Source of the DNA: Eledone cirrhosa
Lineage: Eukaryota
Assembly: GCA_964016885.1 (NCBI GenBank)
Contig: OZ024753.1
Coordinates: 5,952,001-6,016,000, forward strand
Length of the DNA stretch: 64,000 nucleotides
Direction: 5' to 3'
The position numbers and the translations under genes were made by a program. Below, one piece after another: positions 1,651-64,000 of the stretch. A model generated the notes under the pieces. The model saw nothing but the letters and a program-made list of their open reading frames with translations, was not told the origin of the DNA and did not search any database. The stretch's first letter is position 1. Each line of letters begins with the position of its first letter.

Positions 1651-1908
1651 AGAAAGATTTGAATGGATACAGTTTAGTTGAAAGGAATTTATTGACACGT
1701 GTTTCTATAACAGTTACATAACATTATGTAACTGTTATAGAAACACGTGTCAATAAATTCCTTTCAACTAAACTGTATCCATTCAAATCTTTCTATTTTT
1801 CTCCGGATTACTTTTGGAACTACAACTGGAACCGTCGAGCAAACTCTACGTGAGCTGATAATCTACTGTGTGTAATATTTATATTACAACACAACGGAAA
1901 ATACTGTA
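1651..1908 (+). mobile_element. Fold-back Penelope-like terminal relic with hammerhead half (GAAAC-ACGU-GUC)
   Basis: Perfect palindrome ~1649-1796 (apex ~1721) between (TA)n tracts. A 5'-truncated copy of the unique part lies at 52092-52230. Confidence 0.65.
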
Positions 1909-3861
1909 TATATATATATATATGTATATATATATATATATATATATATATATATATGTAAATATATTTTTCTGACTTTTTATGTTGACGGTTCACGTTA
2001 CTGCGAGATATAGTAGTCAAGCTGAAACAAATTAAGTCACGTGTTAAAATAGATATGCCGGCGGCAAATATGACAAGGAACTGTCCGTGTATAGATGTAG
2101 TTTGCCATTGGTGGTTGAACTGGCTACGAGAAAAGTAAGTAAGGTTTTTATTTTCTATCTCAGACGTATGATACTACTCATTTAGTGTTGATATTTGTGA
2201 AATTTTCGACCTTCGTTATTTTTTGAATAATGTTTGTTATTTTTACGTGCCACAAACCTTGTTTCATGACCTAATCTGCTGTGAAAAAACTTAGTTCTGG
2301 CTAAAAGTCGTGCCAGTGTAATTTCACCCTGTTCCTATATTCAACAGAGGGATCATTTTGTCCTTTTTATAACAATTAAATAGTTTTTTTTATTGATTTC
2401 GTAACACCAAGAAAACGAAATGTATAGTTTTGCTTCCCTCTGTAACTAGAACTAAAAATATTGTTTTCCTTTCTCGTTGTTGGTTTCCTTTCATTCCTCC
2501 CTAGCATATCTCGTAGTTTAAATATACTTAGTAGCAAGGGCCTTGTTTCAGGGGGTACCAGGAGACAAGTCCCCCCCCCCCACATTTTCAGGAACGGGGG
2601 ACAAACCATCTTTTGTCTTTTTTTTATTTATTTGGTATAATAAATTCTTTTTAAGCTTATTTTTTTTATATCTGAACTTCATTTCAATATATAAAATTTA
2701 AGTAGCGTAAAATTTTACTTATGTGACAGGGTCCGGGAAAGGCACCATAAGCAATACTAACATGCTCCTCTAAGAATCAACAGATGTTGGTTTATCCCCC
2801 TCACAAAGGGGGCAAACGAGGACCCTGCAAAAAGTGAGGCAAACGTGGCCTCTGCTTAGTAAGGTTTGATTCGATGAAGGATACCTTAGCTTGAATTGCG
2901 GGATTCAATTTCTCTTCAGGTAAAGTTAGATGTTTTATACCGACTTAGTTATCTTGAGGGATATTTTATCTCTCTTGATTAACAATATCCAAATCTGAAG
3001 ATGGATACAAAGGAACGTATAGAATCGAATTATCTTAGCAATTATTGACTGAATGTAAATTTATATTTAACAATAAAGTATTATTAGCAGGAATTTCGTC
3101 ACGTTTAACGGAATCTAACAAAGAAACTCTATTCTGAAATCACGCTGTCATATGAAATAAAATTAAAAAAGTAATACATTTTCAACATTCGTTCCACACA
3201 AAGCGTAAATACGTTTTGACCATGTATATTATATGCAGTGATTTTATATTTTGTAATGCTAACTTGCCCTTGAGTTCGTCGTTGTGTACAGAACCATTCA
3301 TTATAAATTCGAGTATTCATAGAAACGAATAATGAGGAATTTTGCCTAAAGTATTCATATGTAAACAGTACACAGAGACCTATCATTATAAATATCTATC
3401 CTCCATTAATCATTTTAAATATGTATCAGTCTGAGAAGAAGAAAGCACAGCAACTATAGAAAGCCTGTTGTTATCGTGTCGTGTTTATATACCAGTCAAG
3501 TTAGTCGTAACACATTAGTCTAGACAGATAATTCTTTTCTTTTTGTTGAAACGGAAAAAGAATAATCATGGAATGAGAAAATGTCTTACAGTGAAGGAAT
3601 CAATTAGATGACGTTAACTTGCTCTAGTGTATTAGCAAGTCAATCAATCATAATTAGGATAGTGACAACCAAACTGATAACCATTCATATTATTGTTATT
3701 TTCATTAACGAACCTGGGATAATAATTAACAAAATATGTTTTTTGTATTAAATACATTACATATGCAGAATATGAAATATGAAACAATGACATTTCAACT
3801 GTTGTACAATCGTTACCGGAATATTACTTTGACTTTGTGACATTGTGTCCAAATCAGAAAA

Positions 3862-3992
3862 GGGCCATAGAGTTACAGCCCATTACGTTCTGAGTTTATA
3901 TTCCACCCTTTCATCCTTATAGGGTCGATAAAATAAAGTACCAGTAATGCACTGGAATAATTGCTGGCCTTCTGCTAAAAGTAGAAACAATT
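3862..3992 (+). mobile_element. tRNA-derived SINE, partial and degenerate
   Basis: Contains 'tttcatccttatagggtcgataaaataaagtaccagtaatgcactgg', as in the 50161 copy. Confidence 0.75.
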
Positions 3993-61606: not shown

Positions 61607-61700
61607 ACCCCTTGAGAAGATCGGCTATTTAAATACCAGGATAAATTTTCATTTAGTCCAGAATTAGCCGTCGAAACGGCTTGAGCTCAGCTGTCGGGGT
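61607..61700 (+). ncRNA. Type I hammerhead ribozyme, U3:A8 core variant, full stem III
   Basis: ACCCC-UUGAGAA-GAuCGGCUA...UAGCCGUC-GAAAC-GGCU(UGAGCUC)AGCU-GUC^-GGGGU; a C-to-U change in stem III retains G:U pairing. Confidence 0.8.
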
Positions 61701-64000
61701 CTTACTGGTTCCTATATATATATATATATATATATATATATATAATATATATATAAACGTGTGTATATATATATATATATATGTGTGTGTATATATGTGT
61801 ATATATATTCCTATATATATATATTTATATATATATATATATATATAAATGAAATAACAGGAGGCTGGACTGGTGTAAATCCTTGAAAGGTTTATTATAC
61901 CATGATCATTTCAATATCTAAATATAATAAATGAATGTAATAGATAAAATCCATGGGGCCGAAAATCAAAGACCGGAGGACGACCGACTATCTAGCATCT
62001 TCCACTTTAGCCGGTCGCCCTCAAGGGCGTGTATATATATATATATATATATATATATATATATATATATAAGGGCGTATATATATATATATATATATAT
62101 ATATATATATATATATATATATGTATATATATGTCCGAAACGTTGAGACCCTCTTCTTGCTATATCAAGCGTTAACCTAATATATACCTTCCATATACTG
62201 TACCGATTGTGTTGTCATTTCTGTTTACCTTTTATACCCCCCCCCCCACACACACATATATATATATATATATATATATGCACACACACGCATATATATA
62301 TATATGTGTGTGTCTGTGTGTGTGTGTATTTATGAATAATAATGATTCAATTATTATCAATAAAATAAGATAAGAGTTAAGATGCTTAAGTGTTTGTATT
62401 TCAGCTTCTGAATAGCATGTCTCAATCTCGTTACAGATTTAGTTACATGGTAATAGAGAAAATAAACATGGAACAGTTTTAATAGATATTCTGAATATTG
62501 TCTACACATGCATAATATAATTATCTTTAGCACTTTACATTAACAAGCATGAATAAACATCAACTTAAAACAATAAGGTAAACATCCTCATTTTATATCC
62601 ATATAAATATCGATAGAGTTAATATCATATACATACATACATACATACATACATACATACATACATACATACATATATATATATATATATATATATATAT
62701 ATATATATATATATACATGTGTGTGTGTGAGTATAAATATAAATATATATATATATATATGTATATAGATAGATAGAGCAAATATTTAATCTATATATAT
62801 TCTATATATATATTTAATAAATATATATATATATATATATATATATAGGATAACACATTATCGTTAGAGGTTCTGAATACTCCGTATCGTGGATACGTAT
62901 ATATGTATATATATATAAATATATATATATATATGATGTATGAATATATATATATAAGTAGAAAGTTGGACAAATGAACACAATAGATATGTTTTTACAA
63001 CAATAAAACTTCAATGGAACCTCAACTACCGGCCTCCTGTTGTTCCAAACAAACATATATATATATATATATCACTTTAGATTAACAAGCATATATATAT
63101 ATATATATATATATATATATATATATATATATGTGTGTGTGTGTGTGTGTGTGTGTGTGTGTGTGTGTGTGTGTGTGTGTGTGTGTGTGTGTGTGTGTGT
63201 GTGTGTGTGTGATCCAGGGTTCAATCGGGGGTAACGACATTGAGTAAGGTACTCCGAAACTTTAGTATGTGTGCAAGAAATTTAAAACAGAATTGCCTTC
63301 GAAGGAAATCATCAGGATAGCTCTCTCTTGATTATGTCCTTCGAAACAGTTCTAGTCCTGTAGAAGCCATTTATATATATATATATATATATAAATATAT
63401 ATATATAAATGCGTGTCTGTGTGTGTATATATATGTAAGAAATGTCAACATGACCTGTTATCTTTATCTAAATACATTTTTTTCTAATACTAAGCCGCCC
63501 GTCCCTTCAATCTATCTTATTTCTCATTCTTTCTTCTGATGAAGTTCTAGCGTCCAAAACGTTAAGACCCTCTTCCTGCTATATCAAGCATTAACCTAAT
63601 ATATCCTTTCCATATACTGTACCGATTGTGTTGTTATTTCGGTTCACCTTTTACACATATATATATATATATATAAATATATATATATATATATGTCTGT
63701 GTATGTGTATGTATATCCATGAATTAATTATTTTATATAAAATGCATCAGTAGAAAATAACCATTAAATATAATACTCCTTCGTACAAACGTAAATATGG
63801 ATTGATGCATATGTAGATAGATTGGATGAAATCTAAAAAAATATAAGCTAAATAACAAAAGATAACATTCTTTGCTAGATGTATTAAATTATTTTACAAG
63901 AAAAACTAACGCCATTCTCTGTAAGGGAAGAATGAATAATCTTCCTTATCTCATTTGGAAATGTAAGAATATCATGGATTCATCAGTTTCGCGAAATAGA

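Follow-up and report, generated by a model that had tools for sequence, protein, structure and literature searches.

Why should short islands of non-microsatellite DNA, lying in or beside (TA)n tracts, repeatedly carry the fold of a small self-cleaving ribozyme? The question is raised by 64 kb of the genome of the cephalopod Eledone cirrhosa (contig OZ024753.1, positions 5,952,001 to 6,016,000; this whole stretch is called the window), in which a first-pass annotation had named 15 full type I hammerhead sites in nine families (here A to I) and two half-sites, and had interpreted them as the ends of Penelope-like elements (PLEs) or as retrozyme-like elements. We confirm the observation, and our results support the interpretation. 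Of the outcomes that had been named as refuting it, three were looked for and did not occur: a motif density like that of shuffled islands, a lack of stem covariation, and a lack of links to PLE open reading frames. Very probably the islands are 5'-truncated 3' ends of several PLE families belonging to two clades, about ten families in all, with type I hammerheads that are predicted to self-cleave, while the island at 49251 instead represents a protein-free tandem retrozyme of 591 nt that is likely to be mobilised by PLEs.

The motif survey consisted of reading each named place and of applying a type I hammerhead descriptor to the window, of which about 20.4 kb was masked as microsatellite; repeats were identified by masked self-BLAST, and the genome that was searched comprises 3.0 Gb. 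Each of the 15 full sites carries a type I hammerhead homologue, and four additional ones are present at 4243-4280, 18937-19002, 44697-44734 and 58798-58835, giving 19 in 64 kb or about one per 3.4 kb, against an earlier estimate of about one per 4 kb. The half-sites are also real, being hammerhead 3' halves at 1740 (+), mirrored at 1705 (-), and at 21180 (-), the last having been placed near 21170; further ones occur at 19455/19479, 28150/28181, 31703, 40122, 40676 and 62137. Half-sites are copies truncated inside the ribozyme. The density of motifs is patchy, with no descriptor match in the adjacent 20 kb and 23 in 112 kb of TA-rich flanks elsewhere. Predicted cleavage sites lie closer to (TA)n than random island positions do (median 53 vs 149 nt, P=0.0004, for 17 sites, some of them at approximate positions).

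Chance matches in AT-rich, palindrome-rich sequence would agree with the result for the Rfam models, which gave no match to the window at the gathering score (the best 150 of 1016 entries in the list by E-value were all microsatellite or hairpin microRNA noise), and with one or two descriptor matches that look spurious, namely 6412, a likely chance match counted at two of the stringencies given below (4/2 and 3/2), and 61577, which is redundant and counted at 3/2. Even so, we judge a chance origin to be already refuted and give it virtually no weight. In 43,092 bp of islands, compared with 100 dinucleotide shuffles at three stem stringencies, the descriptor found 7 motifs when stems of at least 3/3 bp were required (0.73 in shuffled sequence, maximum 4), 9 with stems of 4/2 (shuffled: 0.59) and 11 with stems of 3/2 (shuffled: 1.46), and in each case 0/100 shuffles reached the observed count. 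The hammerhead moreover sits at a fixed place within each family majority, its position within PLE 3' ends is as published, and its stems covary.

Core positions are given in the customary hammerhead numbering. Family majorities possess the core CUGANGA/UUGANAA, GAAA and UH, together with helices I-III and an open helix I. The exception is family F, where the core is U4C family-wide (31/31 copies without CUGA/UUGA), a change that lowers but need not abolish activity (PMC3088659). The core is C3:G8 in families B, C, D, E and G and U3:A8 in A, H, I and in a coding relic (P) described below, and helix III is self-complementary in nearly all families. Compensatory stem changes were found, in families C and G only: in 35 sequences of family C, picked from 47 distinct ones (97.1% of cells paired), 6/18 pairs are compensatory and 32 cells two-sided, vs 12.0 upon shuffling (reached by 0/500 shuffles), and in 11 sequences of family G, picked from 22 distinct ones, the figures are 4/20 pairs and 10 cells vs 4.2, both sets being enriched for diverged copies. 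Two points count against this evidence, as the controls on pair counts are inflated by relatedness among copies, and the number of pairs changed on both sides was by itself reached by 43/500 and 40/500 shuffles.

The earlier view that any transcript crossing the region, such as an intron, would be studded with self-cleavage sites fares poorly. Copies within foldback palindromes are expected to be sequestered in double-stranded RNA, and no host gene or transcript across the window was shown, lists of open reading frames (ORFs) being all that was inspected. The core is altered in several window copies (C3U at 18945 and 44442, A6C at 39911, G12A in the site at 63536), while in others GAAA is broken (58798), stem I has slipped (7915) or a stem I pair is broken (19154). 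The claim is weak because so many copies have decayed and because a single minimal motif from Schistosoma gave no detectable cleavage (PMC4209133).

Both halves of the proposed identity proved right, as 49251 is a non-autonomous tandem retrozyme and GIY-YIG PLEs account, with their 3' ends, for seven of the nine families. Searching the genome with each island gave 20-30 loci per family (numbered L; best matches only), and these revealed dispersed families with fixed 3' ends in microsatellites, which are (TA)n for most families, (CA)n followed by (TA)n for D and (TC)n followed by (TA)n for B. An exact 28-mer of family D occurs 3,203 times in the genome. In families A, B, C, D, E, F and I, longer genomic copies run 5' without interruption into coding sequence for a PLE reverse transcriptase (RT) and/or endonuclease (EN). 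Family A loci were extended because an ORF lay nearby in 3/25 loci, and the link was found in 3/3 of these (L161-L163), with homologous 3' untranslated regions (UTRs); the links for the other families are in L250, L252 and L260 (B), L263 (C), L019, L030 and L262 (D), L186 and L191 (E), L205 and L214 (F), and L261, L264 and L265 (I). An RT followed by a C-terminal GIY-YIG domain was seen in A, B, C, D, I and relic P, and the EN only in E and F, within the loci fetched.

Judged by motifs as laid down in PMC8557442, B, C, E, F and I are Hydra-clade PLEs, and A, D and P are PLEs of Neptune/Nematis type, a label under which the two clades are not told apart. The former assignment is based on a CxCX5C linker in B, C, E and I (in I with an F to C change at the last position), on a DKT motif, seen in C only, and for F on the C-terminal CxxC/CxH, the only Hydra-clade motif seen there; the latter on a CX2-5CxxC linker, which is CX4CxxC in A and P, together with a CCHH nuclease, both read by eye from the DNA in the case of D. 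The nine families had been described as without obvious mutual similarity; they are not all unrelated, because five are Hydra-clade and two Neptune/Nematis-type PLEs.

A relic of a GIY-YIG PLE in the window (45180-46595) had been suggested as the type of mobiliser; many PLEs of two clades are involved, and the relic, family P, carries a hammerhead of its own and is the source of none of the nine families. Its coding part (about 45244-46593, minus strand) comprises the C-terminal part of an RT, a CX4CxxC-type linker and a GIY-YIG endonuclease. It is identified by its homologues; a Pfam search with eight unbroken frames of the window gave nothing for the four relic pieces. These homologues are proteins with RT and GIY-YIG, an Octopus protein being among the matches, and the alignment covers residues 278-754 of homologue P0002. 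The 3' end at 44611 runs into (TA)n, and an inverted tail piece is found at the 5' junction (about 46594-46620), the same tail sequence following the 3' end in other copies.

Several observations on the coding loci stand apart. In L164 (3633-4904, minus strand) a Neptune-type 3' end is directly joined to a C-like pseudo-long terminal repeat (82%), possibly an inter-clade PLE chimera; as this C-like end lies behind a Neptune-type ORF and is treated as chimeric, L164 was rejected as the source of family C. The 3' UTRs of L161-L163 contain imperfect internal repeats of 170-250 nt, whose number differs from copy to copy. A near-intact long interspersed element (LINE) interrupts the family I PLE in L261 and L265. 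Family I copies at 3.5-4.9 Mb of contig C20 (L091-L095, L097-L100) have identical flanks and a spacing of about 100 kb, and form a segmental array.

Most islands are foldbacks, and many of those in the window are near-perfect palindromes by masked self-BLAST. The inverted, 5'-truncated arm with a tail at one end only was found for the EN-bearing PLE families. In two-armed copies one arm stops at a short end while the other carries the tail. This combination of short and long end was found in 18/19 copies of A, 16/16 of C and 10/11 of G, and, where only the inverted arm was free to vary, in 11/11 of F, 3/3 of I and 5/5 of E; L192-L194 were treated as one E insertion and many I loci on contig C20 as duplicates, family B was set aside and family D left uncounted. 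We favour a process in which the PLE GIY-YIG nuclease would cut (TA)n, each of the two broken DNA ends would have its own fixed starting point for reverse transcription, 3' of the hammerhead, and two prematurely stopped cDNAs would be joined 5'-to-5', which may produce both the foldback islands and the half-sites.

Family H differs from the PLE ends. Over 261 nt its 40 best matches show 100% identity, and they are repeated at a spacing of 591 nt; the unit is non-coding (the longest stop-free frame has 86 aa) and folds strongly (z -6.6), and a 24-nt half of its hammerhead has 7,444 exact occurrences in the genome (control: 0). Family H is thus a non-LTR retrozyme: its non-coding units are arranged in tandem, lack an LTR, are dispersed and carry one type I hammerhead apiece. 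Ends and alleles were analysed in 50 position-ordered loci, of which 48 were aligned; L306 and L326 were dropped as diverged relatives (no alignment at 85%), as were L291-L293 as a duplicate. Arms reach 4.9 units and their 5' ends are scattered, while 68/73 3' ends fall at two points, unit positions ~163 and ~328, and are followed by TA in 64/68. Two-armed insertions have a short and a long end in 20/24 cases, never the same end twice, and another arrangement in 4; in an identity-ranked sample the figure is 14/15. Divergence is 0.38% within an insertion vs 3.15% between insertions, 808/827 site-by-insertion cells are uniform, and both inverted arms share private alleles. It is likely that H is mobilised by the same PLE enzymes.

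In the case of H, one RNA template was probably copied round repeatedly. We lean towards a circle, cut and ligated by the hammerhead, as the likeliest template, its main rival being an uncut multimer transcribed from a uniform array. In contigs of four runs, whose kind is unrecorded, the H sequence is joined to itself in X1 and X6 and, in slightly changed form, in X2, and contigs of X1 and X5 contain H with little or no cover of family F; neither was counted for a circle, because tandem DNA has the same join and an absence of cover is no proof.

A number of results weigh against the account given so far. Family G (40198) was without an ORF link in 20 loci, and a tandem retrozyme nature of this family is unsupported, as second copies on the same strand are separate insertions. 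Family B follows the two-end rule in 3/11 copies only, a count confounded by (TC)n in the reference. For H, no autonomous partner sharing its sequence or matching it at a PLE end was found among the fetched loci, no genome-wide search for a partner having been made, and a clustering of 5' ends at the predicted cut had to be rejected (1/73 within unit positions 80-90). Clonal H arrays would also be expected if uniform arrays gave transcripts that stayed uncut, or if units were duplicated locally in tandem, and head-to-head PLE arms have been explained instead by self-priming (PMC3846280).

Several of these points fit an alternative in which the elements are the same but the templates are uncut, linear read-through RNAs, the inverted arms result from a switch of template or from self-priming, and the hammerheads are merely carried along, weakly active or passive. 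The uncut site is retained in all insertions, H 5' ends ignore the cut site, and many window foldbacks are near-perfect palindromes; in vitro cleavage by the minimal hammerheads of metazoan PLEs is poor (PMC4209133), Naiads are able to spread with no canonical hammerhead (PMC8557442), and the self-priming model is a published one (PMC3846280). However, core and stems are kept across subfamilies, and diverged H relatives have preserved stem I and the 5' core in otherwise different sequence. The strict rule of short and long ends and the sharing of alleles across both arms require, furthermore, two defined priming points on one template type. We regard passive hammerheads on linear templates as a real possibility, although not as the outcome that we expect.

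The internal uniformity of the arrays could also suggest a satellite, formed where a PLE end, once inserted, was duplicated locally in tandem, and local amplification from PLE termini has been discussed (Li et al. 2026, 10.64898/2026.07.22.740005). This is very improbable, as the arrays do not exceed ~5 units per arm and are thus short, and as they are dispersed and of fractional unit number, with random 5' ends, two fixed 3' ends in (TA)n and private alleles common to both inverted arms.

Some further features of H were noted. The diverged relatives L306, L326, L297 and L282 retain stem I and the core of the hammerhead, some pairs that are G-U in H being A-U in them, and unit lengths in diverged arrays are 587-595. 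At 49077-49133, next to the 5' junction of the window copy, flanking DNA forms a small palindrome about a run of (TA)n; it looks as though the end of the target had folded back and copied itself before joining.

A further property of family H is an asymmetry of its substitutions. Changes common to all units of an insertion comprise 31 A>G and 11 T>C (71 insertions), while unit-private changes comprise 11 A>G and 25 T>C (Fisher P=0.0002), and the 34 youngest position-ordered insertions gave 23/5 for shared vs 5/12 for private changes. Among insertion-specific changes alone the skew is not significant (7 vs 4), H lineages are not independent, and there was no clear neighbour or pairing signature of ADAR (20/31 A>G sites paired vs 80/133 A; no 5'-G depletion). 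Taken together, clonal arrays, the PLE footprint and the template-shared skew fit repeated copying of one RNA template by PLE enzymes. Other possible causes of the skew are a bias of the RT, selection for G-U pairs and transcription-linked asymmetry. A more speculative scheme, which we consider unlikely in its entirety, has the 591-nt element as a circular ribozyme RNA that a pair of PLE enzymes reverse-transcribes in rolling-circle fashion, simultaneously from both ends of a cut (TA)n site and from two fixed priming points 165 nt apart, and whose lineages are diversified by A-to-I editing of the RNA between rounds.

Much of this has precedents in print, where PLE ends with hammerheads have been described along with their U3:A8 core, their inverted arms and tails and their insertion into (TA)n, one such element of the Hydra clade being from Octopus. 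Minimal type I hammerheads are massively present and heterogeneous in the pseudo-LTRs of metazoan PLEs, for which a study has already reported the U3:A8 core, motifs paired on opposite strands and monomers of poor activity, and has proposed a circle model (PMC4209133). The window shares with these a large number of families per genome that look unrelated, copies that are mostly solo and truncated, opposite-strand pairs 100-700 bp apart, a palindromic helix III, an extra base after A9 and U3:A8; it differs by the family-wide U4C of F and the long stem II or III arms of H and I, and the consulted parts of that source contain no cephalopod case. Insertion by GIY-YIG/RT proteins with (TA)n bias, inverted arm and tail is likewise described (PMC8557442, PMC3846280), the tail together with the self-priming model in the latter. 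Common to the Hydra, Neptune and Nematis PLEs of PMC8557442 and to those found here are the C-terminal GIY-YIG, the CxCX5C or CX2-5CxxC linker, (TA)n preference, the hammerhead and the inverted 5'-truncated copy with a tail on one end. Octopus is represented there by Hydra-1_Obim, with (TA)n preference and a hammerhead that is identical to none here, although family G resembles its helix III by eye; the window holds at least five Hydra families vs one, with tails of ~40-160 nt vs 30-40 bp. Non-LTR retrozymes were defined in PMC7229834, with PLEs named as likely mobilisers, and a PLE origin is supported by Li et al. 2026 (10.64898/2026.07.22.740005). H shares with animal non-LTR retrozymes a non-coding tandem unit, one type I hammerhead per unit, thousands of dispersed copies, co-occurrence with PLEs and a strong fold (PMC7229834; 10.64898/2026.07.22.740005), but has a unit of 591 nt vs 150-450 bp in PMC7229834 and a U3:A8 core; its (TA)n targeting and two-ended inverted PLE footprint are not described in those portions of the retrozyme literature that were compared. 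No closer paper on cephalopod hammerheads or retrozymes, nor on editing in retrozymes, was found in a search that left most subscription papers outside.

Features of the window, with clade assignments by motif and cleavage sites as predicted (a dot marks features without a single strand)
Feature	Position	Strand	Description
Family P relic	44611..46620	-	5'-truncated broken PLE: RT C-terminal part, CX4CxxC-type linker, GIY-YIG, 3' UTR with hammerhead
Family P hammerhead	44697-44734	-	type I, U3:A8 core, palindromic CCGG, predicted cut after 44701
Family H	49132..49578	+	5'-truncated 0.76 unit of 591-nt non-coding tandem retrozyme; long 3' end into (TA)n
Family H hammerhead	49251..49338	+	U3:A8 core, long stem II, 3-bp helix III, predicted cut after 49333
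Family A foldback	7388..7738	.	two back-to-back PLE 3' ends; hammerheads 7525-7562 (-), 7633-7669 (+); tail on left arm only
Family A copy	7847..8027	+	hammerhead 7915-7951, slipped stem I
Older family A copy	4087..4340	.	degenerate hammerhead 4243-4280 (+)
Family B, PLE end, Hydra clade by motif	7768..7845	-	hammerhead 7801-7838, predicted cut after 7805
Second family B copy	58798..58965	.	broken hammerhead 58798-58835 (-), inverted tail
Family C foldback, Hydra clade by motif	18580..19070	.	hammerheads 18722-18787 (-, intact), 18937-19002 (+, C3U)
Diverged family C copy	39792..39954	.	hammerhead 39860-39919 (-), broken by A6C
Family D, PLE end, Neptune/Nematis type by motif	19072..19241	-	hammerhead 19154-19189, core intact, one stem I pair broken
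Family D copy	44407..44556	+	hammerhead 44438-44473, C3U
Family D copy	63437..63650	+	hammerhead 63532-63567, broken by G12A
Family D copy, internal deletion	40583..40758	-	3' half-site at 40676
Family D half copy	62133-62231	+	
Family E, PLE end, Hydra clade by motif	31075..31318	+	hammerhead 31091-31182, predicted cut after 31176
Family F, PLE end, Hydra clade by motif	32022..32523	+	hammerhead 32271-32317, family-wide U4C core
Family G foldback	40054..40291	.	hammerhead 40198-40259 (+) intact; half-site 40122 (-)
Family I, PLE end with tail, Hydra clade by motif	58966..59295	+	hammerhead 59111-59206, U3:A8, predicted cut after 59201
Family I copy, short end	61314..61715	+	hammerhead 61607-61700, predicted cut after 61695
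Family I foldback of half-sites	19413..19594	.	tail on one arm
Family I, similar foldback	28036-28223		
Family I fragments	31683-31733, 31973-32026		
Family J foldback	1649..1900	.	hammerhead 3' halves 1740 (+), 1705 (-); extra sequence, likely tail, on right arm
Family K foldback	21114..21233	.	hammerhead 3' half at 21180 (-)

Other repeats were also observed. Foldbacks of a family M (6024-6245 and 40307-40547) have a short and a long end, carry no hammerhead in these copies and probably represent another PLE end; family N (31379-31599 and 58579-58786) is TA-flanked, 90% identical and frequent in other loci, with no hammerhead seen. The 3' part of family J is present at 1769-1900 and 52092-52223 with 98.5% identity, marking a young family. 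A dispersed repeat of ~190 nt resembling a short interspersed element occurs at 3907-3997, 16588-16772, 24618-24811, 30500-30687, 39642-39759, 42029-42223, 50152-50349 and 54641-54747, and relics resembling APE-type LINEs, with a weak Exo_endo_phos_2 match, at 13758-14386 and 22409-23717. Degenerate (TA)n arrays at 32521-38463 and 50892-57997 are very long (6-7 kb), many elements are nested end to end within shorter TA runs, and a degenerate (TCA)n array of ~400 nt lies at 42931-43342.

As an instance of published biology, the hammerhead landscape matters mainly for annotation, since Rfam sees none of it, yet two of its families amount to 7,444 and 3,203 exact matches in the genome. The insertions of H carry the same two-ended footprint as coding PLE families of the same genome, and this young 591-nt retrozyme provides a test system for the role of PLE hammerheads and for whether PLEs mobilise animal retrozymes via circular RNA. 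If the editing scheme were true, the two-end rule would expose a general mechanism of PLE integration, and past editing of RNA would be recorded heritably in the genome; the A>G skew offers a lead to the question of whether such elements let RNA editing feed back into genomic DNA.

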